A DNA stretch of 64,000 nt from Myxococcota bacterium. Lineage in GTDB: Bacteria; Myxococcota_A; UBA9160; JAFDDA01. Shown one piece after another: positions 1 to 10,169 of the stretch; position 1 is the first letter of the stretch; each line of letters opens with the position of its first letter. The stretch spans positions 2,496,001 through 2,560,000 of the forward strand of contig OZ245817.1 in assembly GCA_965228475.1 (NCBI GenBank), read 5' to 3'. The notes below the pieces were generated by a model, which saw nothing but the letters and a program-made list of their open reading frames with translations, had not been told where the DNA came from and ran no database searches. Made by a program: the position numbers and the translations under genes.

Positions 1-892
1 GCCTCTGGATCTTCGCCGCCAGCTGCGCCGGCATTCGCTCGAGCTCGTGCGATCGAAATGACGCGACCAGCCGAACACCAGCGGGACGCAGCTCCCTTGC
101 CAGAGCTTCGAAGAGCACGATAGATGACGGATCACCGACCTGGAGGTCGTCGATCGCGACCAAGACAGGCGAATCCACTGCCAGATCCGACAGCGCCTGC
201 CCAATGGACTCGAACGCATCAAAGAGAATCATGCTTGCGGAGCTCGCCGCTTTCGCCTGCCGGGACTGCATCGCAGAGAGCTCCGACTCCCAGCGATCAG
301 CCAGGCCGAGTGATCGAAACACCTGCTGCCACGGGGTATACGGAGCGCCTCGGCGCGCCTCAGAACAGCGCCCCACCGCAACGCGACATCCCCTCCGTCT
401 AGCCCGCAGCGCGAACTCTTCTATCAGTCGAGTCTTTCCTATTCCCGCCTCTCCCAGCACCAGCGCAACTCCGGTCATCCCAAGATCGAGATCGATCACG
501 CTTGTCAACTGCGAGAGCTCAGTTCTCCTCCCTACAAACCCTTGAGACTCGGTTCGCAGCTCGATGTTCTGATGATCGCTGTCAGCTTCTCGGACATTAA
601 CGAGCCACCGATACCCCTTCCCGTACACTGCCTGGATCGTTGTAGGATTGTCCGCCGAGTCGCCGAGGGCAGTCCTGAGTGAATTGATGGCAGTCGGAAT
701 AGTCGAAGCAGCGATCGCCCGCCCTTGCCAGATCTCCTCTTGAAGCTCGGCTTTTCTGACTACTCGATCGCGATTGCGGATGAGATAAAGGAGCAAGTCA
801 AAGACCAACTGCCCAATCTCTACGGGCTGGCCGCGACGAAGCAGAAGCCGCCTGCCTTCGTCCAACTCGAAGTCCGAGAACTGAAAATGCAT
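1..892 (-). CDS. Winged-helix (OmpR/CadC-type) DNA-binding domain + AAA/STAND-type ATPase transcriptional regulator, 3' end runs off the window
   Basis: Not in the ORF track; translated by hand from ATG at 892: MHFQFSDFELDEGRRLLLRRGQPVEIGQLVFDLLLYLIRNRDRVV..LRTALGDSADNPTTIQAVYGKGYRW (wHTH), then FVGRRTEL, Walker A GEAGIGKT, Walker B VLVAIDDLQ; frame open to position 1. Confidence 0.85.
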   Translation of the reverse strand, partial: MHFQFSDFELDEGRRLLLRRGQPVEIGQLVFDLLLYLIRNRDRVVRKAELQEEIWQGRAIAASTIPTAINSLRTALGDSADNPTTIQAVYGKGYRWLVNVREADSDHQNIELRTESQGFVGRRTELSQLTSVIDLDLGMTGVALVLGEAGIGKTRLIEEFALRARRRGCRVAVGRCSEARRGAPYTPWQQVFRSLGLADRWESELSAMQSRQAKAASSASMILFDAFESIGQALSDLAVDSPVLVAIDDLQVGDPSSIVLFEALARELRPAGVRLVASFRSHELERMPAQLAAKIQR

Positions 893-1018
893 CGGCGATC
901 AGTCTAAGGCGAGGGGAGGCCGGTCTGCGCCGAACCGATGCAAAGAGCCGAAAAGCAAGGTAGAAACCCTCGCTAGATCATCAGAAAGCCTCAGAAGCCC
1001 CGCAAGGCGCAGGGCGCC

Positions 1019-2488
1019 TCACCCGATCGAAACCGAGACCCGAAGCTCCTCGCCCGCGGGGTTGAGTGGCCCGACACTCAGCGGTCCAAAGAAGCCGGCA
1101 CCGAGCTCGGAAGCGGCTGCCAGCTCAAGGGATTCCATGACCCTCGAGGCCACCAGGTCGGGCGCCACTCCAGGATCGAGGGGCACCACCAATGCAACCC
1201 GCCCACCCGCGATGGTGACCCCAATTGTGCCACCTCTCCTAGCGAGCCCGACACAGAGCACGAGGAGCAAAGCAAGGCAGAGAGTGAGACGAGACCTCGG
1301 CCCCGAGACTTTGCCCGACTCGACGTCCGTCGCGATTGAAACCCCGGCCCGGCCCACGGCCGCAGCGATCCCCTCAGCAGCCTCGGAAAGCAGCTCGCTC
1401 AAATCGCACAAAGTGCAAGCCTCGATTCGATCGCTGCGGACCTCAGCGATTAAGTCCTCCAAGACCCTCGCTGGACGGAACCCTGAAGCTAGCAATAGGG
1501 CCGGCGCCGCAAGGACCTTGAGCTGATCGACTTCGACCGACACCGATTCAGCCGGCTCCATCGAGCGAGCGTTCTCGATCGCAAGAGAAACCTGAGAGGC
1601 TAAGCCCTCCAAGAGTGCGCGTTCGGCTGCCCGAAAGGACCTCCCGCCCTTCCGATTGTCAACCACCAACACGCCGACCGCGCCTCTTGGCCCCACAAGC
1701 GGAACAGAAAGGATCTCTTCTGCGGCTAGCTCCACAGCCAGGGTTCTGCCGACCGGGCCGAGCTCCGTCGCGGTCTCTGCAACGACCAACTTCGTCTCTC
1801 CCGAGCGAACGGATTCGAGCCACGGCCCCCCATTTGCCTCGTCGATCGAAAGCTCACAGGCAAGACCGCCATCGGGGTCGGAGCTCTCTGAGCTAGCCAC
1901 CATCGTCAACCGGACTCCTGCCTTGTCGAGGATTCCGATCATCGCAGCATCGAACCCAAGATCTGAGGCCACAGCCCGGACCACAAGCTTTGTGAGGCGG
2001 TCAAGGTCGGATTCAGAGCCGATTTGGTGGCTAATCGATCGGACGGCTGTCAGTTCCCGGAGAAGCGAGTCCTTCTCAGACTCCAGGGCATAGAGGTCGA
2101 TGGCTTGCACCACCACCTGCCTCATCTGATCGGGCGACCAAGGCTTCGGGATGTACCGGTAGATCTTCCCGTGGTTGACTGCGTCCGCCAGGGTTTCTGC
2201 GTCACCGTATGCGGTGACCAAGAGGCGCACTGTCCTCGGGTCGACCTCCCGCACCCGAGAAAGAAAATCGGTTCCCGTCATCTCGGGCATTCGGTGGTCG
2301 CTGAGCACGACGGAAATAGGGTGTTGATTGATCAGGTCGAGCGCGTCAGCGCCGCTCTCAGCCGTATAAATCGTGAAATCTCGACGAAAGGCGAGTTCGA
2401 AGGCGCGCAGGTTCGCCCTCTCATCATCTACGTAGAGGACAGGGAACTCTCGTCGATCCACGAGGCGTTGCGGCTCAGGCTGCATCAA
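1019..2488 (-). CDS. Response regulator: REC + GAF + degenerate histidine-kinase-like C-terminus
   Basis: REC motifs LYVDDE, SDHRMP, LVTAY, KPW; GAF signature VPLVGPRGAVGVLVVDN..LASQVSLAIENAR; C-terminus resembles HATPase but lacks a clear H-box and G-boxes; start TTG 2488 or ATG 2485 overlaps the upstream stop. Confidence 0.85.
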   Translation of the reverse strand: MMQPEPQRLVDRREFPVLYVDDERANLRAFELAFRRDFTIYTAESGADALDLINQHPISVVLSDHRMPEMTGTDFLSRVREVDPRTVRLLVTAYGDAETLADAVNHGKIYRYIPKPWSPDQMRQVVVQAIDLYALESEKDSLLRELTAVRSISHQIGSESDLDRLTKLVVRAVASDLGFDAAMIGILDKAGVRLTMVASSESSDPDGGLACELSIDEANGGPWLESVRSGETKLVVAETATELGPVGRTLAVELAAEEILSVPLVGPRGAVGVLVVDNRKGGRSFRAAERALLEGLASQVSLAIENARSMEPAESVSVEVDQLKVLAAPALLLASGFRPARVLEDLIAEVRSDRIEACTLCDLSELLSEAAEGIAAAVGRAGVSIATDVESGKVSGPRSRLTLCLALLLVLCVGLARRGGTIGVTIAGGRVALVVPLDPGVAPDLVASRVMESLELAAASELGAGFFGPLSVGPLNPAGEELRVSVSIG

Positions 2489-5261
2489 TGTTCTCTTCTG
2501 GGAGCCAGATCTCGAAGCAGGCGCCGTCGCCTAGAACAGAAGACACTCCGATCGTCCCGCCGTGGCTCTCGATAACCTGCCTCGAGATCGAAAGGCCGAG
2601 CCCCGTGCCCTTCCCTGCACCTTTTGTCGAGAAGAACGGGTCGAACAGTCGCGCTATGTCGTCAGGCTCGATCCCGGGCCCATTGTCACGAATCGCCACT
2701 TGAACCCCGCTGGCGTGGGCCTCGATCGATACCGAGATCTTTCCACCCCCTCCTTCTTCGAGAGCCTCCGACGCGTTCTTTAGGATGTTCAGAAGGACCT
2801 GACCGATCGCCTGTGGGTCTCCCACCACAAGAGGAACGCCCTCTGCGCAGCTAACCGCGACAGAGACGTTCTTCTCTGCCATGGAGTGCCGCAAGAATCT
2901 CGAGACAGAATCAACAGACTGGACGACGCTGAAATGGACCTTCTCACCGAGGGCTGGCCTGGAGAAGTCTCGAAGATCTCCTACAAGCTTTCCCGTTCGC
3001 TCGAGGCCTTCTTCAACGATACCGGCGAGCTCTATCACCGCGCTGGACGTATCGCTCAACTCAGCCAGCCGCAACCGCTCGGAAATCTTGGCTTTCTCTT
3101 CACCTGACAGAGGCGGCCCGCTCTCTTGAACCAGCCCACAAACCTCACGAGCTGCCGATACGAGATCCTCGATGTAGGGCTTCATGGCACGGACCGCATT
3201 CACGGAGTAGTTCACAGGGTTGTTGACTTCGTGAGCGACACCAGCTGCGAGTTCGCCTACCGCTGCCAAGCGCTCCGATTGTACGAGCTGGGCCTCCGCC
3301 TCCTTCAGCTCATCCAGCGTCGTCTCAAGTTCGTCGTTCGCATGCTCTAGAGCGCGGTTCCGTTCCGCAAGCTCAGTCTGCAGCTGCCTGAGCCGTACCA
3401 AGCTCCGCACCCGGGCGAGCAGCTCCCGCGAGTGGAAGGGCTTCGTAACGTAGTCGTCAGCCCCCAACTCAAGGCCCTCAATCTTCATCTCGCGCTCTGC
3501 CTTGGACGTGACCAAGATCACCGGCAGAGCTTCAGTCGTCGAATCACATTTCAACGTCTCACAGAGCTCAGTCCCCGACATCTCCGGCATCATCACGTCC
3601 GTCAACACCAGATCTGGCATTCTGCGCCGCACTTCCTCGAGGCCCTCCCGTCCATTCTTCGCCGTCCGGACTGCGAACTCACTCGACAGGACGTGAACCA
3701 AGAGCCTACGCATATCCGGGTTGTCCTCGCAGACCAAGACGTCCGGCATGTCCGCTCCGCCCTGGCCAGCCTGCGCCCCCTCATCGTGCGCACTCCCTTT
3801 CGTACGCTCCCATCGGTCTACCGATCGCTCTAGATCCAGGAGCTTGCTCGCCTCCTCATGGTCCCGCGAGAGCTGAGCGTCCAAATCTGCGAAGCCTGAG
3901 ACCTGCGACCTTTCCCTGGGTGCATCCGCAAGGACATCTTCCCTCGCAACGTCCTCTTCTCCTTGTGGCAAGGTCACAGCCACGTTGGTCCCGAAGCCTA
4001 TACCCTTGCTAACCGCCCAGATCTTTCCACCGTGCAGCTCGACCAGCTCTTTCGAGAGCGCCAGGCCAATCCCCGTTCCTTCGTGCCGACGAGTTGACGA
4101 ACCATCGGCCTGGGCGAAGCGATCGAAGATCCTCTCGCAGTCACGAGGCTCAAGGCCGATGCCTGTATCCGACACTTCGAGCCTTATTCCATCACCATCA
4201 GCACGAGCGCAGACAGAGATCGACCCGCCCGAATCCGTGAACTTCAATGAGTTTCCAACTAGGTTGATCAACACCTTCTCGAGTGCATCCGGGTCCGCGT
4301 TGATCGAGAGAGACTCATCGAACTCGCCAACGCTGAGATTGACTCCCTTCTTGCGAGCCAGAGGCTGAGCTCCCGACACGATGTCTGCCGCAAGCTGAGC
4401 CGGCGATACCAATCGGCGCTCGATCCTAAGTTGATCACTCTCAATCTTCGCCAGATCGAGCAGGTTATTGATCAGCTTCAGTAGCCTGAGCGCATTGACG
4501 TGCATCGTGCGCAAGTAGTCGCGCTGGAGCGGGTTGACTTCGCCGAACTCACCCCCCAGAAGGCTCTCGAGCGGAGCGAGGGTCAACGTAAGGGGCGTGC
4601 GAAGCTCGTGGTGGACGTTCGCAGTGAATCTCGACTTCTGCTGGTCGAGCTCCCGCAGGGTGTCTCGCGCCTTCTCGACCTCTCGACGCCGAACGAAATC
4701 TCGAAAGCGGCTGTTGTCGATAAGCGCGGCACTAGCGATGCAGACGATTCCGGCCGAGAACAAGAACACCGAGCTCATCAAGAATTCACGCCAGGGGATC
4801 TCCCATGGCAAGACCAACGGAGAGCATGCATAGAGTCCGAACGTGCAGACGCTCAAGACTGCCGCTTCTCGTACTGAGAACGGCAACAGGACAGGAACGC
4901 CCGCAAGGAAGAGGATTAGCCCGACGTAGTAGCCGCCAGAGGGCTCGCCGGTACCGAAGATCACCATTCCCAGCATCGCTTCAGTCGACAGAGTCAACGC
5001 CCACTTCGAGACAGGCGCAGGAACCCCACTGGAGGGCGCGAAGAACAGCCCGATCAGTCCGACTTGGAGAGCGCATCGAACCAGGAAGAAGTCTGCGAAT
5101 TGCGCCGGGAAGAGGTAGAAGTCAGAGAAGACGAAGAGGACGTTGACGACAGCAGTCGTCACCACTCCGGTGCGAATGTAAGAGCTTCCACCATAGTGGT
5201 TGAGCTCTCGCCAGTACGCTTCGTAGGAAGCTCTGCCTGCCTCTTCTACCAAACCGGCCAT
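2475..5261 (-). CDS. Membrane hybrid sensor kinase: multi-TM sensor + HisKA/HATPase + REC + second HisKA/HATPase
   Basis: About 5-6 hydrophobic helices; H-box HHELRTPL, N-box NLVGNSLKFT, DTGIG, GTGIGL; REC VCEDN/DVMMP/KPF; second H-box AHEVNNP, NILKNA, DNGPG, GTGLGL. Confidence 0.92.
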   Translation of the reverse strand: MAGLVEEAGRASYEAYWRELNHYGGSSYIRTGVVTTAVVNVLFVFSDFYLFPAQFADFFLVRCALQVGLIGLFFAPSSGVPAPVSKWALTLSTEAMLGMVIFGTGEPSGGYYVGLILFLAGVPVLLPFSVREAAVLSVCTFGLYACSPLVLPWEIPWREFLMSSVFLFSAGIVCIASAALIDNSRFRDFVRRREVEKARDTLRELDQQKSRFTANVHHELRTPLTLTLAPLESLLGGEFGEVNPLQRDYLRTMHVNALRLLKLINNLLDLAKIESDQLRIERRLVSPAQLAADIVSGAQPLARKKGVNLSVGEFDESLSINADPDALEKVLINLVGNSLKFTDSGGSISVCARADGDGIRLEVSDTGIGLEPRDCERIFDRFAQADGSSTRRHEGTGIGLALSKELVELHGGKIWAVSKGIGFGTNVAVTLPQGEEDVAREDVLADAPRERSQVSGFADLDAQLSRDHEEASKLLDLERSVDRWERTKGSAHDEGAQAGQGGADMPDVLVCEDNPDMRRLLVHVLSSEFAVRTAKNGREGLEEVRRRMPDLVLTDVMMPEMSGTELCETLKCDSTTEALPVILVTSKAEREMKIEGLELGADDYVTKPFHSRELLARVRSLVRLRQLQTELAERNRALEHANDELETTLDELKEAEAQLVQSERLAAVGELAAGVAHEVNNPVNYSVNAVRAMKPYIEDLVSAAREVCGLVQESGPPLSGEEKAKISERLRLAELSDTSSAVIELAGIVEEGLERTGKLVGDLRDFSRPALGEKVHFSVVQSVDSVSRFLRHSMAEKNVSVAVSCAEGVPLVVGDPQAIGQVLLNILKNASEALEEGGGGKISVSIEAHASGVQVAIRDNGPGIEPDDIARLFDPFFSTKGAGKGTGLGLSISRQVIESHGGTIGVSSVLGDGACFEIWLPEENIDAA

Positions 5262-5271
5262 TCAGACCAGA

Positions 5272-5297
5272 ATCGGTAGAAAACACAGCTTTCTTGA
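5272..5297 (-). promoter_or_regulatory. Putative sigma28/FliA-like promoter TCAAG-N15-ACCGAT upstream of the hybrid kinase
   Basis: Minus strand reads TCAAG aaagctgtgttttct ACCGAT, 10 nt before the ATG; the same geometry recurs at 40713-40738 and 58576-58601. Confidence 0.4.
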
Positions 5298-5357
5298 GCT
5301 GCTATTGCTGATACCGCAGCGCGCGGTCGCAGCTCCCAGCTGACGCAGGGGACTTGG

Positions 5358-7856
5358 CTAACTGGGCCTTATCGCTGACAGAACGATCGCCTGCGGAGGG
5401 TCACCGAACCCACCGGATGTACGCACGGACGAGAAACCTGCCCGCCGAACCATCTCCTGCAGCTCGACTTCATCCCAAAAGTGGAACCGACCGGCCTCCT
5501 CGAGGTCAAGGATCCGAGCGGCGTCGTTGAGAAACCGACGCAGCGACTCATCAACCGCAGTCTCGCCAACACTCCCTAGCAACTCACTCGCTCGACCGGA
5601 CCTCAACTCCCGAACACCCTCGACAAACAGTCGAGAGATGTCCGCGTCCTTCCGGAGCGTCGAAAGGACCAGCCTCCCCGACGGACGAAGCATCCGATAC
5701 ATCAGCTTAATCTGAGCTTCGGGTTCTTCAACGTAGGAGAGAAATAGGGACGCGAGAAGGGCATCGTACCTGCCCTCGAAGCCACCTGCTGAAACCACCC
5801 CTGTATCGGCGAGGTCGCATTCGATGTAACGAAGAGAGACGCCATGAGGCGTGCCGACCTTTTCGATTCGAGTTCTTGCGTGCTTCAATGCCTCGGGAAC
5901 GAGATCTATCAGGTCAACCGTGATTCCCTGCGGAGCCCCAGACTCCAGCAGCCTAAGCGGGAATGCTCCTGTGCCAGCGCCGACATCCGCGACCCGATCC
6001 CCAGAGCCTAGGCCTAAGGCGAGAATCTGCGTATCCATGAGGCGCTGGTACGGCTCGATCGCATTCATCAAATCGATCCCGAGCCCCCCGTCCCGGCCGA
6101 GCAGGTAGTTGCGCCAGAAGTCCACGGCATTGATCGATGGTGCGCCGACCCGTGCTCGCTCTGCCTTCCTCTTCAGCTCCAATGCCGAAACATCGGGAAG
6201 GCCAGGAGCAAGCTCCATTTCCGTAGCCATCTTTCCGATCTCGACTGCGATCAACTGGAACACTTCGATCGCCTCTTGACTACTCCGCAGCTGATGGCCA
6301 GTGGGTACCTCAAGCAGTTTTCGCCTCGACGTATCGCCGAGCGCCATAATCTCGCGGACGCGGGTCAAGTCTAGCCACGCATCGAACTTACCGTGGATCC
6401 AGGTGATTGGAACGTCGATCTCAGCCATCTCTCGACGAGAGTCTTCCAGAAAGGCTAAGTCGTTCCCAATCGCGTCACTCGCGACCCTATCGATGTCTGT
6501 CGTTACGCCCATCAGTTCCTGAATTCCGAACTCCAGTCCCTGCTCGGCGCCACCGATGAAGTCCAGCCCACCCGAGACCTTCTTCAATCCTGACTGGAGG
6601 TCGGGAGCACCGACAACGCTAACCCAACCTTTGATGAGACCAGTCTGGTCTGCCACAACAGCCCTCCTAGCCTCGATCGATGCGGCGCTGAAGCTGACCA
6701 AAATGGCGGTTTGGGTGGCGAACTCAGGAGAGGTTGAGAAGTAATCAACCGTGGCCTGAATGTCCTTCACGCCCTCGGAAATCGAGAAGTGCAGATTCTC
6801 CATTCCTTCGGTCAGGCACTCGGGGTCATTGTGGGACTCACCTCTTTTCCGAACACCATCGAAACGAACGACCACCACAGGAACGTTTGCTTTCTCGAAG
6901 GTGGCCAGAATCGTCGCCGCCAAGGGGAGCAAAGTCTCCTTCGTCCGACCCCAAGCAGGGGGGATAACGACCAGCGTTGCCCCTCTTCTTTCCCCGACAC
7001 TGTCAACGATCGCCACGATCTCTTCGCCGCGGGAATTTGGGTACCTCACCACCTCGATACGTTCCGAGGTTCGTTTCGCTCGCCCGAGGGCTCCACGAAT
7101 CACAGCACTCGCGCCAGCAGCTGCAAGGCTCAGCTTCTGCCTGATCCGAGAGCCTGCTGGTAGTTGGAGAATCGAAGAACGGCGCTCCACTGGGTAGAGA
7201 TCTGTGGGTCGGACAGAACTAGTAGACAACCCAACCCGGCTCCACCCGGCCCGCGTGGGAGCCGCGGACTTTCGGCGCAGCTGTGCCCAGCGAAGCGCCT
7301 CTCCATGAATCTCCACTCGAAACGAGGACTCTAAGTCCTGCGCGCCTCTTGTCGGCAGCTCAACTTGAAGGCCGTCCGCCGAGAGATCAACAACCCGACC
7401 TCTAGCTAGAGTCGCGCCAGACTCTGAGTAGATCGATACCTCTCGCGCTCCCCCCTCATCAACTCGGCTGCGGCGCCGATCCCGGCGCTCCGCGCGGTAG
7501 ATCCTACTGGGCATGGGCGCGACCACGCGGTCCGCCACCCCACAATCAGAACTAGGCAAACAGACGAAGAAGTACGGGAGGCCGTCCAGAAAGAAATTGA
7601 GAAGCAACGAACTCTTCCGTGCCTTGTCAAAGTTCTTAGTGCTGAGCGATACGGAGTCGGACCCGACTGTCTCCAAATACGCGGTCTCGGGATCATCTGA
7701 GCGATGCCTAGCCCCAGAGAGGGGAATACGCTCGCGGCACACCCTGGCTAGAACCGCCTGGATCTCTTTGGAATCCTTGATTGCGCTGGCGTGAAGCTCA
7801 TCAATGACACCCGGAGCTATCGGCTGCCCTAGGCGGTACGTAGGAGAGGTCTGCAC
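5358..7856 (-). CDS. PilZN/PilZ + alpha/beta-hydrolase (LuxD-like acyl-thioesterase) + class I SAM methyltransferase fusion (832 aa)
   Basis: PilZ motifs ERRDRRR and DLSADG; hydrolase segments PPAWGRTKE, VRFDGVRKRGES, nucleophile elbow SFSAA, HGKFDAWL, PTGHQL; SAM motif VADVGAGTG, LFLSYV, LRPSGRL. Start moved to GTG 7856 (GAGAAAGG upstream). Confidence 0.8.
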   Translation of the reverse strand: MQTSPTYRLGQPIAPGVIDELHASAIKDSKEIQAVLARVCRERIPLSGARHRSDDPETAYLETVGSDSVSLSTKNFDKARKSSLLLNFFLDGLPYFFVCLPSSDCGVADRVVAPMPSRIYRAERRDRRRSRVDEGGAREVSIYSESGATLARGRVVDLSADGLQVELPTRGAQDLESSFRVEIHGEALRWAQLRRKSAAPTRAGWSRVGLSTSSVRPTDLYPVERRSSILQLPAGSRIRQKLSLAAAGASAVIRGALGRAKRTSERIEVVRYPNSRGEEIVAIVDSVGERRGATLVVIPPAWGRTKETLLPLAATILATFEKANVPVVVVRFDGVRKRGESHNDPECLTEGMENLHFSISEGVKDIQATVDYFSTSPEFATQTAILVSFSAASIEARRAVVADQTGLIKGWVSVVGAPDLQSGLKKVSGGLDFIGGAEQGLEFGIQELMGVTTDIDRVASDAIGNDLAFLEDSRREMAEIDVPITWIHGKFDAWLDLTRVREIMALGDTSRRKLLEVPTGHQLRSSQEAIEVFQLIAVEIGKMATEMELAPGLPDVSALELKRKAERARVGAPSINAVDFWRNYLLGRDGGLGIDLMNAIEPYQRLMDTQILALGLGSGDRVADVGAGTGAFPLRLLESGAPQGITVDLIDLVPEALKHARTRIEKVGTPHGVSLRYIECDLADTGVVSAGGFEGRYDALLASLFLSYVEEPEAQIKLMYRMLRPSGRLVLSTLRKDADISRLFVEGVRELRSGRASELLGSVGETAVDESLRRFLNDAARILDLEEAGRFHFWDEVELQEMVRRAGFSSVRTSGGFGDPPQAIVLSAIRPS

Positions 7857-7867
7857 GAGGGCCTTTC

Positions 7868-8056
7868 TCAGTTGAGACGGAGCCTGGAAGGGAACGCAAA
7901 TCCGGCCGTCCTCGACCGATTCCGCCGATCCATCCCGTTTCGCAGGGGCGTGTCGAGCGCTCGCAGGCGCGAGAGGATCTCGACGACCGCGGCGCGGTCT
8001 GCGATGGATTGTCGGTGGAGGGCGCCGAAGGTCGGCTGAGGATTCAGCTGGGTCAT
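7868..8056 (-). pseudogene. 62-aa ORF, truncated paralog of the PilZN N-terminus of the next gene (remnant or mini-protein)
   Basis: LHRQSIADRAAVVEILSRLRALDTPLRNGMDRRNRSRTA aligns ungapped with LHASAIKDSKEIQAVLARVCRERIPLSGARHRSDDPETA of 5358-7856; AAGGA upstream of the ATG; stop lies 11 nt before the next GTG. Confidence 0.55.
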
Positions 8057-8173
8057 GCATCCTTCTTCCGTGAAGTCCGCGCGTAGCCAAGTGGTTGCGA
8101 AACCGCATTCTACTTACGGTAGAAGAAGGGATTCAAGCTGTAGTTGCGAGTTTGGGGTGATAACAACGCGGAC

Positions 8174-9181
8174 TCAGGGCCCGCGGCTGTCCACCTTCTC
8201 GAGCTTCACCCCGGCGTCCGAGAGGATCTCGAGGGAGCTTTCCCCCAGCGGGTAGTCGCCGTTGTAGATCACGGCCACGATGCCCGCGTTGATGATCATC
8301 TTGGTGCACTGCAGGCACGGAGACATCGTCGTGTAGATCGTGCCGCCGCGGACCGGGACCCCGTGGTACGCGGATTGGACGATGGCGTTCTCCTCGGCGT
8401 GGGAGCACAGGCAGGTATCGAGCCCCGCCCCGCTCTGCCCGAAGGCGTTGCAGCGCGGGCAGCCCCCTTCGTTGCAGTTGCGCACGCCGCGGGGGGTGCC
8501 GTTGTAGCCCGTGGCCACGAGCCGGCGATCGATCGTGATGACGGCCCCGACCTTGCGCTTCACGCAATTGCTTCGAGATGCAGCCACCTCGGCAATGTTC
8601 ATGAAGTACTCGTCCCAGTCAGGGCGCTCGAAAAAAAGCGAGCGGGAGAGGATGGTCTGGATCGCCTTGTGGAGTTCCTCCTTGCCGCCGTCGTTGCGCA
8701 GGGTGAAGTCCGCCAATGCCTGGACGGCCGCCATCTGCTGCCCGGCGGCGTTCTCGCCCCCGCGCTCCCGGCCTTCGAGCTCCTTCAGGCGCTCGAGGGT
8801 CTCCGGGTCACCCGGGCGGGCCCTGCCCTTCAGGCGCTCGAGCCGGGTCTCCATGTCTGCGTCGACCCACACGAGCTTGAAATCGCCGTGGGCCTCGCGA
8901 AGGGTCTCGACCTCCGCGGGGTGGCGAACGGAATCGACGACGTAGTTGCGGTCCGGCGCGAGCTTGTCGAGCAGGCGGACGGCCAACGCCCCCGGGCCGT
9001 AGCGCTCGCGCAGCTGGGTGCCGACCTCGATCATGCGCTCGCGCGATTCTTCGAGCCCGCGCTCGCGCAGCTCGTCGCGCAGGACGTCGGAAAGCGAGAG
9101 CGCATAGAAGCTCCGGCTTTCGAGGTACGCCATGACCTCGCCCTTGCCTGCACCGTAGGGCCCCGAAAGACCGAGAATCAT
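8174..9181 (-). CDS. P-loop nucleotide-kinase-like domain fused to deoxycytidylate (dCMP) deaminase
   Basis: GPYGAGKG Walker A, VVDSVRH; RPDWDEYFM, GYNGTP, HAEENA, PCLQC zinc-deaminase motifs; GGAGG RBS before ATG 9181. Confidence 0.9.
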   Translation of the reverse strand: MILGLSGPYGAGKGEVMAYLESRSFYALSLSDVLRDELRERGLEESRERMIEVGTQLRERYGPGALAVRLLDKLAPDRNYVVDSVRHPAEVETLREAHGDFKLVWVDADMETRLERLKGRARPGDPETLERLKELEGRERGGENAAGQQMAAVQALADFTLRNDGGKEELHKAIQTILSRSLFFERPDWDEYFMNIAEVAASRSNCVKRKVGAVITIDRRLVATGYNGTPRGVRNCNEGGCPRCNAFGQSGAGLDTCLCSHAEENAIVQSAYHGVPVRGGTIYTTMSPCLQCTKMIINAGIVAVIYNGDYPLGESSLEILSDAGVKLEKVDSRGP

Positions 9182-9287
9182 GGTGTTCCCCCCTCCCCTC
9201 ACTTATCCCGGTGCGCTGCGGGGGTCAAGCGTTCCGGCTCCGGACCGGCCTCGGCGAGCTTGGCCGGCCCCAGGAGCGGAGACTCGC

Positions 9288-10028
9288 TCACTTCCGGCGG
9301 CTGGCGAGAAGCAGAAGGCCCGCGAAGCCCGTGGCCATGGCCAGCAGGCTGCCCGGCTCCGGTACCGGCAGGCTCACGTTCGTGAATGTGATCGTCGTGA
9401 AGATCGGGAACTGGTTGCCGAGGACTGAGACGAAGGTCGGCGAAACCAGCGTAAGCGGGCCCGAGGCGCCCGCTAACGTGACGATGTTCGTGCCCGAGTT
9501 CACCGCGCCGACTCCCGTGCTGAAGACGGCGGCGTCTATCGTGAAGGGCGAGGCCGTGGCACCCCCCTGACCGAGCTGAGCCGCGTTCAGATCGACCGGG
9601 ATCGGGACGATGACCGGAGTGAAGACGTTCACGAAGCCGTCGAGGCCCATGGCCCCACCGACACCGCCACCCGTGTTGCAGGCGATGCCCGGTGCGACGC
9701 CGCCACCGCACACTTCCCCTGGAGCATGGACCGTCACGCCACCGGCCGAGAACGTGCCAGCCTGGTTGCTGATGGTCATGGCGGCAATCGAGTTGATCGC
9801 CGTGGTGGAGGTTACGGGCACGACGACCGGAGCCGGCAGCGAAACGGTGCCAGCAGCAATCGACACGGTGCTACCGGACACCGAAACCGTTCCGACTTCC
9901 GAGAAGGAAATCGGGCTCAAGCCCTGAATCGTCAGCGTGAAGATGATGTTCGTCGCTACCGGCGCCGCCTGGACGACTCCGCTCACCAAGAGCGACCACG
10001 CGGCCACGATTCCGAAGAACCAACTCAC
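9288..10028 (-). CDS. PEP-CTERM sorting-domain surface protein (Gly/Thr/Val-rich)
   Basis: GTG 10028 after GGAGGAG; signal peptide ending VQA-AP; C-terminus VPEPGSLLAMATGFAGLLLLASRRK. Confidence 0.88.
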   Translation of the reverse strand: MSWFFGIVAAWSLLVSGVVQAAPVATNIIFTLTIQGLSPISFSEVGTVSVSGSTVSIAAGTVSLPAPVVVPVTSTTAINSIAAMTISNQAGTFSAGGVTVHAPGEVCGGGVAPGIACNTGGGVGGAMGLDGFVNVFTPVIVPIPVDLNAAQLGQGGATASPFTIDAAVFSTGVGAVNSGTNIVTLAGASGPLTLVSPTFVSVLGNQFPIFTTITFTNVSLPVPEPGSLLAMATGFAGLLLLASRRK

Positions 10029-10169
10029 GAAAGCTCCTCCCAGCCTGCGGCAACGCCGTCTCCGGACGCCGCGACGACTGACGGAGCCTTCCGCGCCGCG
10101 GCTCCCGAGGCCGCACCGGCCTCGAGTCACGACCCTAACACAGGACTCGGGCGGGCTCGGTACCGGCGC

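Follow-up and report, generated by a model that had tools for sequence, protein, structure and literature searches.

What is encoded by the cluster of four co-oriented genes at the low-GC left end of a 64,000-nucleotide stretch of Myxococcota DNA (contig OZ245817.1, positions 2,496,001 to 2,560,000, assembly GCA_965228475.1; the whole stretch is termed here the ‘window’, and belongs to a single-contig genome of 5.0 Mb)? The initial annotation of this sequence had likened the cluster to the phc quorum-sensing operon, which in Ralstonia and its relatives (to the extent that the available portions of PMC8578825 and PMC11960443 describe it) comprises a gene for an S-adenosylmethionine (SAM) methyltransferase, followed by genes for a membrane kinase and for receivers that lack DNA-binding domains. 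The gene order which that annotation had described is indeed found: four minus-strand open reading frames (ORFs) encode, in turn, a putative signal synthase, a membrane histidine kinase (HK), a protein with receiver (REC) and GAF domains, and a regulator that combines a winged helix-turn-helix (wHTH) with AAA and TPR domains. Pfam recognizes methyltransferase, REC, HisKA, HATPase, GAF, Trans_reg_C, AAA_16 and TPR domains in their products.

The answer favored here, which is considered probable but well short of settled, is that the block would encode a phc-like quorum-sensing circuit, in which a methylated fatty-acid signal is sensed by a six-transmembrane (6TM) kinase, while cyclic di-guanosine monophosphate (c-di-GMP) probably tunes the synthesis of that signal. 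Because the synthase and the sensor vary together between close relatives, the cassette likely represents a new fatty-acid-ester signalling system with strain-specific ‘dialects’.

A three-part putative signal synthase

The first gene (5358 to 7856, minus strand) encodes an 832-residue putative signal synthase, built from tandem PilZN and PilZ domains, a linker helix, a LuxD-like alpha/beta hydrolase and a class I SAM methyltransferase, and is present in a single copy in the genome. Its start is probably the GTG at 7856, because members of the family are approximately 835 residues long and align from that position; for the same reason, longer starts at 8108 and 8060 were rejected. A search for homologues returned 379 sequences, of which the best 120 were inspected, and 55 close homologues (approximately 45% identical) were aligned. 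The structure model of the protein (predicted local distance difference test score, pLDDT, of 86.9; predicted template modeling score of 0.87) retrieved the LuxD myristoyl-ACP thioesterase (1THT) as its top match in Foldseek, and also matched the c-di-GMP-bound PilZN-PilZ protein PP4397 (3kyf, E of 1e-9).

The tandem PilZN-PilZ region (7212 to 7823, minus strand) scores below the Pfam cut-off (E of 0.013), and carries both motifs of a c-di-GMP receptor on its PilZ barrel: RxxxR (R125 and R129) and D/NxSxxG (D157, S159 and G162). Among the aligned close homologues, R124, R125, R129 and G162 are present in 55 of 55, an aspartate or asparagine at position 157 in 55 of 55, and a serine or threonine at position 159 in 54 of 55, from which the tandem would be expected to bind c-di-GMP.

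The central domain (6138 to 7067, minus strand), a predicted acyl-ACP thioesterase or acyltransferase, shares with LuxD both its fold (in VIA, a Z of 29.4 and a root-mean-square deviation of 2.7 over 276 residues, the next esterase reaching 25.6) and an intact Ser-Asp-His triad (S390-D492-H521), which is kept in all 55 close and all 16 distant homologues. It differs from LuxD in being only 17% identical to it, in being fused to PilZ and methyltransferase domains, and in having no lux genes among its conserved neighbors. The corresponding Pfam family (PF02273, Acyl_transf_2) does not match the window synthase; two of seven distant synthases scanned pass its cut-off (23.5-23.6 bits). The PilZ-thioesterase-methyltransferase architecture read originally from the sequence is thus confirmed, insofar as the PilZ motifs are conserved and the hydrolase resembles LuxD and keeps its complete triad.

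The equation of the third domain with PhcB did not survive. This methyltransferase (5361 to 6128, minus strand; Pfam Methyltransf_23, E of 5e-12) retains the SAM-binding motif D624/G626/G628/G630 in 55 of 55 homologues, and lacks the KPxG[YF]xGD motif; a PhcB-like profile aligns only with its Rossmann core (127 columns, 19% identity) and finds no match in the window genome. A search of the PDB by sequence gave methyltransferases only, among the matches listed, and leads from an Atlas search with the synthase were all below 0.9. When the cassette proteins were scanned against Pfam and NCBIfam, no crotonase domain was matched, and a tblastn search of plasmids with the PilZ and hydrolase portion found nothing. 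A search for shorter, hydrolase-only forms yielded 29 matches, apparently mostly fragments.

A sensor kinase related to PhcS

The second gene (2475 to 5261, minus strand) encodes a 928-residue kinase with a six-helix membrane sensor followed by a HisKA-HATPase pair, a REC domain and a second HisKA-HATPase pair, as assigned by Pfam. Its predicted phosphorylation sites are conserved across 45 homologues (H218 and REC D555 in all 45, H677 in 44), and its sensor is the only one of its kind in the genome. The 6TM sensor domain (4692 to 5234, minus strand) is modeled confidently as a six-helix bundle (pLDDT of 93) with a fold of the adenylyl-cyclase/ImcA type: although helical bundles may score high by chance in VIA, adenylyl cyclase 5 (Z of 17.2) and ImcA (Z of 16.4) stand well above the following rows, at approximately 10. 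The domain may be MASE8-like: eight of 37 sensor family members match MASE8 (PF20968) at E values up to 1 (best 7e-5), the window protein being among those that do not, and Atlas leads for MASE8 reached 11%. Searches with the sensor in Foldseek (no match at E <= 0.001), NCBIfam (nothing useful) and plasmids (tblastn, no match) were unproductive, while a profile of the sensor family collected 2,135 matches at E <= 0.001 among cluster representatives.

The comparison with phc was made through an operon on a conjugative Paraburkholderia graminis plasmid (NZ_CP024936.1; L094:5967-12397), with a phcB-phcS-REC-phcQ-like gene order, which encodes a Cfa-like protein upstream, a 468-residue methyltransferase, a 445-residue kinase, a REC protein and a 344-residue REC-containing protein. 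It is treated as phc-like because its gene order and its residues R22, H233 and R157 fit the published key positions PhcB R22, PhcS H230 and PhcQ R154 (reported in the portions available of PMC6989110 and PMC11960443); PhcS L161 has no exact counterpart in the plasmid kinase, which bears F161 and L165. The plasmid PhcS-like sensor, itself a weak match to MASE8 (E of 0.004), aligns with the sensor profile over 192 of 200 positions at 72.5 bits (E of 1e-23), while shuffled sequences did not exceed 6.9 bits. The suspected kinship of the membrane region to PhcS is therefore upheld, with a Paraburkholderia phc-like operon, rather than the Ralstonia proteins, as the reference. Describing the gene as a simple fusion of PhcS and PhcR, however, proved too simple. 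The PhcS-like kinase is closer to the second kinase module (34% identity, 145 bits) than to the first (25%, 55 bits), and the protein is therefore better seen as a PhcS-type kinase to which an HK-REC module has been added.

Linkage of synthase and sensor

The suggestion that such synthases would lie beside such kinases in other genomes has been borne out. Sixty-one loci were compared across GTDB genomes, taken from the best 80 of 90 confirmed stretches. The sensor kinase is found in 51 of them, in 50 cases downstream of the synthase and on the same strand, and in every one of the ten loci that lack it the contig runs out no more than 2.7 kb from the synthase. A survey of 225 genomes of the class found the synthase in 83 and the sensor in 98, with both in 78 of the 83 synthase-positive genomes. 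A phylum-wide sample of 401 genomes gave 17 matches outside the class, of which one (a weak match to the methyltransferase only) was left aside. The remaining 16 span several families, without being independent of one another; all 16 encode longer proteins in which the same three parts are joined, and in 15 the sensor kinase lies within 5 kb of the synthase. Their neighbors include a PAS-GGDEF-EAL gene at seven of the 16 loci and, at one, a kinase ending in HD-GYP. The window genome itself contains 18 GGDEF matches.

An MMPL transporter gene adjoins the synthase in 42 of the 61 loci (29 co-oriented, 13 on the opposite strand). The window genome carries an MMPL gene 1.5 Mb from the cassette (L071:9645-11951, near 968.6-970.9 kb of the chromosome), which has a host-like GC content at third codon positions (GC3) of 0.94 and nests within the clade of cassette MMPL proteins; it is likely either an exporter acting in trans or a relic of an earlier cassette.

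Several peculiarities of individual loci were recorded. At some of the distant loci L108, L109, L111, L097 and L100, REC-kinase genes precede the synthase, or the synthase itself has an apparent receiver-type N-terminal extension, and many distant synthases carry an insertion of approximately 100 residues within the methyltransferase domain. Synthase and sensor matches are fragmented by stops in two genomes (G126 and G178), which suggests decayed cassettes or sequencing errors, and in a third (G035) parts of the cassette are scattered over a contig.

Alternative synthases in the same slot

Twenty genomes in the class survey possess the sensor without the synthase. Twelve of these, together with four second copies of the sensor, were inspected (16 loci), and seven were found to carry a different enzyme in the position of the synthase. 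Four loci (‘type B’, all from one genus) place a desaturase and a 330-residue PhcB-like methyltransferase before the MMPL and kinase genes, while three (‘type C’) encode a PilZ-PhcB-like fusion protein and a Cfa-like methyltransferase. The replacements are thus in every case fatty-acid enzymes, a point in favor of the circuit proposed below. The nine remaining loci comprise six that are cut by contig edges before the slot, two with distant sensors and no synthase, and one in which a second kinase lies upstream of a normal synthase. The genome of L084, in which a type C synthase was expected, gave no match to one; the contig of L084 stops 200 bp short of the kinase on its upstream side.

These sister enzymes, as opposed to that of the window, belong to the PhcB family: 391 columns of the profile of the PilZ-PhcB-like proteins align with the PhcB-like protein of the plasmid (E of 5e-43), and several of their homologues carry the JGI label ‘3-hydroxypalmitic acid methyl ester biosynthesis protein’. 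A search of the class with the PhcB-like profile found matches in 12 of 225 genomes, nine of them strong; all nine also encode the sensor, with seven corresponding to loci already inspected and two being new. Separately, a weak alignment between the N-terminal part of the plasmid PhcB-like protein and the end of the type C PilZ domain (Pfam finds no PilZ match there) hints that the N-terminus of PhcB may be derived from PilZ. Shorter PhcB-like methyltransferases, of approximately 270 residues, match 143 plasmid records, of which 125 are from Rhizobium.

Co-variation of synthase and sensor domain

The synthase and the sensor domain vary as one module, whose boundary lies where the membrane domain ends. 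Across 40 loci, the GC3 of the sensor domain follows that of the synthase (r = 0.94; partial correlation of 0.93 given the kinase part of the same gene) far more closely than that of the kinase part to which it is joined (partial correlation of 0.22). At loci with low-GC synthases, the sensor domain lies at least 0.10 in GC3 below the remainder of its own gene in 14 of 18 cases; the same step is seen in none of the 22 others.

Sequence identity follows the same boundary. Twenty-two pairs of loci have kinase parts that are at least 70% identical. In 14 of these pairs the sensors are 78-98% identical, and the synthases 67-92% identical in the ten that could be scored; in the other eight the sensors are only 27-46% identical, and the synthases 42-48% identical in the four scored. 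One such pair combines kinase parts that are 89% identical with sensors and synthases that are 46% and 48% identical, respectively. The break falls near residue 190. Distances behave similarly (n = 40): the partial correlation of synthase with sensor given the kinase is 0.52, against 0.20 for synthase with kinase given the sensor, and the difference is weaker in a subset of 19 loci (0.35 versus 0.19). The three type C sensors cluster together with modest support, while their kinase parts do not.

The pattern would be explained if synthase and sensor domain were exchanged between relatives as one specificity module. A similar GC signal could arise from fast divergence without exchange, or if a polymorphic segment had lost GC-biased conversion; a specificity module would still be indicated in either case.

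A proposed circuit and its alternatives

The following circuit is proposed. The LuxD-like domain would take an acyl chain from acyl-ACP and then release it, as its fold and triad predict. The SAM domain would methylate the released chain, most likely at its carboxyl group, by analogy with the PhcB-family enzymes that occupy the sister slot. Binding of c-di-GMP to the tandem PilZ domains, predicted from their motifs, would alter the activity of the enzyme. An MMPL transporter (encoded in trans in the window genome) may export the lipid, as gene linkage suggests, and the PhcS-type 6TM domain, whose homology is established above, would bind that ligand in the membrane and control the HK-REC-HK relay. 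The output would pass to the REC-GAF-kinase here and, in distant relatives, perhaps to proteins of the GGDEF-EAL or HD-GYP type. Exchange of synthase and sensor domain as a unit would then generate signal dialects, and the cassette as a whole would presumably sense cell density.

A broader proposal is put forward only tentatively, and is thought to be somewhat less likely than its negation: that the cassette belongs to an undescribed, Myxococcota-wide family of lipid quorum-sensing systems, in which one polypeptide reads c-di-GMP, frees a fatty acid from ACP and methylates it, the cognate sensor, of the PhcS type, acts back on c-di-GMP, and one chromosomal ‘socket’ accepts synthase sets that are unrelated to one another (PilZ-LuxD-methyltransferase, PhcB with desaturase, and PilZ-PhcB with Cfa), each together with the membrane domain of the sensor. 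If that were true, these would be Gram-negative pherotypes that switch their entire signal chemistry, with phc as one special case.

A number of observations weigh against the signalling circuit. For the synthase, the nearest solved relatives of the methyltransferase include N-, O- and C-methyltransferases, by which the methyl acceptor is not fixed, and the PilZ motifs need not signify gating, because the tandem PilZ protein PixB of Myxococcus xanthus works without c-di-GMP binding during growth (as described in the available part of PMC8316039). The MMPL gene is absent from the window locus, from 19 of the 61 loci (a few of which are truncated where their contigs stop) and from 15 of the 16 distant loci; the 61 close loci have no GGDEF or HD-GYP gene as a conserved neighbor (the motif was matched twice, both times in MMPL reading frames), and no DNA-binding response regulator is conserved at the loci. 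For the co-variation, the window kinase gene has no internal GC step, and falls among the 22 loci without one because the whole of its block is low in GC; in a sub-lineage of 19 loci, the sensor also tracks the distance of the REC-GAF protein (partial correlation of 0.34); and a quick tree of sensors groups only weakly by synthase type (support of 87-92, with 28 and 35 of 500 shuffles scoring as low). The pairs that were compared share members and kin, and the genomes are not independent, such that these are patterns rather than independent tests.

The alternative that survives best, although still judged unlikely, retains the same signal-sensor pair, while assigning the PilZ domains a structural or docking role without gating, or the enzyme a product other than a methyl ester (a methylated amide, or an O-methyl ether after acyl transfer). 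The type B slot-fillers have no PilZ domain, distant homologues vary in the second PilZ motif, and the methyltransferase subfamily is not settled by sequence or structure matches. Enzymes of the LuxD type can, moreover, pass acyl groups to acceptors besides water. Against such a role stand the near-invariance of both PilZ motifs in 55 of 55 close homologues despite an identity of only some 45%, the presence of PilZ with both motifs in the type C slot-fillers, which bear it independently, and the c-di-GMP enzymes beside eight of 16 distant loci.

It is less probable again that the enzyme and the MMPL protein together produce and secrete a lipid for the envelope or cell surface, with the kinase acting as a homeostatic feedback monitor rather than as a cell-density sensor. 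MMPL proteins are exporters of structural lipids and are encoded at 42 of the 61 loci, and the Cfa-like enzymes and desaturases of the sister cassettes are classic modifiers of membrane lipids. The constant partner of the distant synthases, however, is the sensor (15 of 16 loci) and not the MMPL protein (one of 16), that sensor is of the PhcS type, the distribution of the synthase (83 of 225 genomes) is patchy, and the replacement of synthase and sensor domain between near relatives suits signal specificity better than housekeeping. Finally, an antagonistic or kin-discrimination compound, for which the sensor and the wHTH-AAA protein would provide self-recognition or protection, would accord with the turnover of alleles at one fixed position, the relic synthase stub and a low-GC STAND-type regulator that moves with the block, but is highly improbable given that no immunity-type gene is conserved and that the homology of the sensor is to a type of quorum-sensing receptor.

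Relation to known systems

The signalling circuit preferred here resembles phc, which uses 3-hydroxypalmitic or 3-hydroxymyristic acid methyl ester, in its order of methyltransferase, membrane kinase and receiver genes, in a sensor homologous to that of a PhcS-like kinase, and in the PhcB-family genes that fill the same slot in sister cassettes. It departs from phc in that its synthase is a non-orthologous PilZ-LuxD-methyltransferase fusion, by which membership in that system fails; in the additional HK-REC module of its kinase; in the usual presence of an MMPL exporter; and in having no linked PhcA-like regulator (no LysR, or PhcA-type, gene was noticed among the neighbor clusters examined, in a genome that was not searched for LysR as a whole). 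The genes phcB and phcS themselves vary together according to signal type and are subject to balancing selection, as reported in the accessible portions of PMC8578825 and PMC6580516.

Systems based on diffusible signal factors (DSF and BDSF; RpfF-RpfC-RpfG and RpfR) release a fatty-acid signal from acyl-ACP by a thioesterase (PMC13660987), and employ a hybrid membrane kinase with an output to c-di-GMP turnover (PMC13220807), according to the parts of those papers that were available. The cassette shares with them a fatty acid that is predicted to be released by a thioesterase, a hybrid membrane kinase, and the HD-GYP or PAS-GGDEF-EAL partners of distant loci. RpfF has a crotonase fold; the enzyme here is instead a LuxD-type alpha/beta hydrolase, and bears methyltransferase and c-di-GMP-type receptor domains on the same chain. 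The sensors CqsS and LqsS, described in the available text of PMC4821796 as 6TM adenylyl-cyclase-anchor receptors for lipophilic autoinducers that are linked to histidine kinases, belong to the same fold class as judged from the structure model, while the cassette lacks the pyridoxal phosphate-dependent synthase that characterizes CqsA/CqsS and LqsA/LqsS.

A precedent for the arrangement PilZ-PilZ-enzyme is PixB, a c-di-GMP-binding tandem PilZ protein fused, like the synthase, to a small-molecule enzyme; that enzyme is a GNAT acetyltransferase rather than a hydrolase and methyltransferase, and the part of PMC8316039 available describes no cognate 6TM sensor. The paired variation of signal gene and sensor recalls comQXP and agr, where both are polymorphic together and define communication groups (PMC4408185 and PMC6580516, in their available portions). 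Those systems employ Gram-positive peptide signals, share no homology with the cassette and vary within species, whereas the variation here is between related species. For comQXP and agr, as for the cassette, the polymorphism break falls inside the kinase gene.

No description of the synthase or cassette was found in the literature searched (mostly open papers, without supplements). If the interpretation is correct, fatty-acid methyl ester quorum sensing, which has so far been studied mainly in Ralstonia and its close relatives, would extend to a large uncultured lineage (83 of the 225 genomes of the class), and a new type of synthase would couple the making of an autoinducer directly to a second messenger inside the cell. 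Natural synthase-sensor pairs could help to find ligands of orphan 6TM adenylyl-cyclase-anchor receptors, a question left open in PMC4821796 as far as its available text goes, and the thioesterase-methyltransferase fusion would be a candidate one-step enzyme for making fatty acid methyl esters.

Downstream genes

The third gene (1019 to 2485, minus strand, in an ORF that begins with TTG at 2488) overlaps the stop codon of the kinase gene, and encodes a REC-GAF-kinase protein that retains its receiver residues and has lost the H-box and ATP-lid motifs. It had been described as a pseudokinase, which is accurate for the window lineage and does not extend to the family: the kinase is intact in 20 of 23 aligned homologues, for which reason its degeneration is regarded as local decay. 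Such proteins are linked to the synthase in 27 of 61 loci. The receiver is 39% identical to that of the PhcQ-like protein, within a domain class whose members are broadly similar in any case.

The fourth gene encodes a 997-residue STAND-type wHTH-AAA-TPR regulator, of which the window holds only the 5' part (1 to 892, minus strand); the rest runs 2.1 kb beyond the window. Its proposed role as the output of the relay is not supported: by Pfam the protein has no receiver domain, it accompanies the synthase at only 17 of 61 loci, where its position and direction differ, and in a tree with the genome's own six paralogues it mixes with them, such that no monophyletic cassette-specific clade was recovered. 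Its GC3 is 0.69, versus 0.82-0.91 for those paralogues, and similar genes are present in the four type B cassettes and at L081; for these reasons, the gene is suggested to travel with the block as an accessory member of a variable segment. A candidate for the transcriptional output is a sigma-54-type response regulator, whose gene lies upstream of the synthase at L025 and L063 and whose cluster is represented in eight loci. These two loci (L025:4001-7992 and L063:5574-9621) also encode, upstream of the synthase, a second 6TM kinase whose C-terminal kinase is divergent.

The chromosomal site

The depressed GC content noted at the outset is confirmed: the block, of 10 kb, has a GC fraction of 0.603, against 0.705 +/- 0.018 for 10-kb windows of the genome, and is the lowest of all those sampled. 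The low-GC block spans positions 1 to 8150 and extends approximately 2.1 kb beyond the left edge of the window. Its site is conserved, with a dCMP-deaminase fusion gene on the upstream side and a conserved gene downstream, and the same flanks are found in many relatives and in a same-genus genome. A recent foreign island unique to the window genome was considered and rejected, as relatives hold the cassette at the same site; low GC3 recurs in the synthases of those relatives, 24 of 43 lying at least 0.10 below their flanks. Scans for promoters and terminators gave results at the level of chance (one versus 1.5 expected, and eight versus 7.4). The upstream flank (8174 to 9202, minus strand) is a nucleotide-kinase-like AAA domain fused to dCMP deaminase. 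In the same-genus genome (G040; 89% complete, with contigs that end within the block) no synthase, sensor or kinase was matched; there, a desaturase follows the upstream flanking gene and the end of a wHTH-AAA gene precedes the downstream one (L072:1-390 and L092:1-345), the middle being unassembled.

Between the upstream flank and the synthase lies a 62-residue stub (7868 to 8056, minus strand), which reproduces the first 51 or so residues of a synthase of another subfamily before reaching a stop. Its best matches are 52% (L038) and 49% (P0045) identical over 42-51 residues, the family profile recognizes it with an E of 7e-9, and BLAST finds no match between it and the window's own synthase. 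Its GC3 of 0.78 falls between that of the host (0.86-0.92) and that of the cassette (0.65-0.69), and the stub is likely a relic of a displaced synthase allele. Position 8056, where the synthase had been thought to begin, is the ATG of this separate stub, in another reading frame. A single frameshifted gene starting there was rejected, as the stub repeats what are residues 1-51 in a different allele, and the reads agree with the window.

Other sequence data were compared with the assembly. One sequencing run is identical to positions 1-9762 of the window (and may represent the source sample itself), and contigs from another study span the stub, in the same reading frame, and the third gene at approximately 99% identity without gaps; a low-depth contig from that study has a one-base gap within the fourth gene. 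Beyond the upstream flank, an ORF at 9288 to 10130 (minus strand) ends in a VPEP-type C-terminal sorting motif, which is presumably a PEP-CTERM signal. Because one contig of the other study skips positions 9234-10167, this ORF may be a strain-level insertion or deletion.

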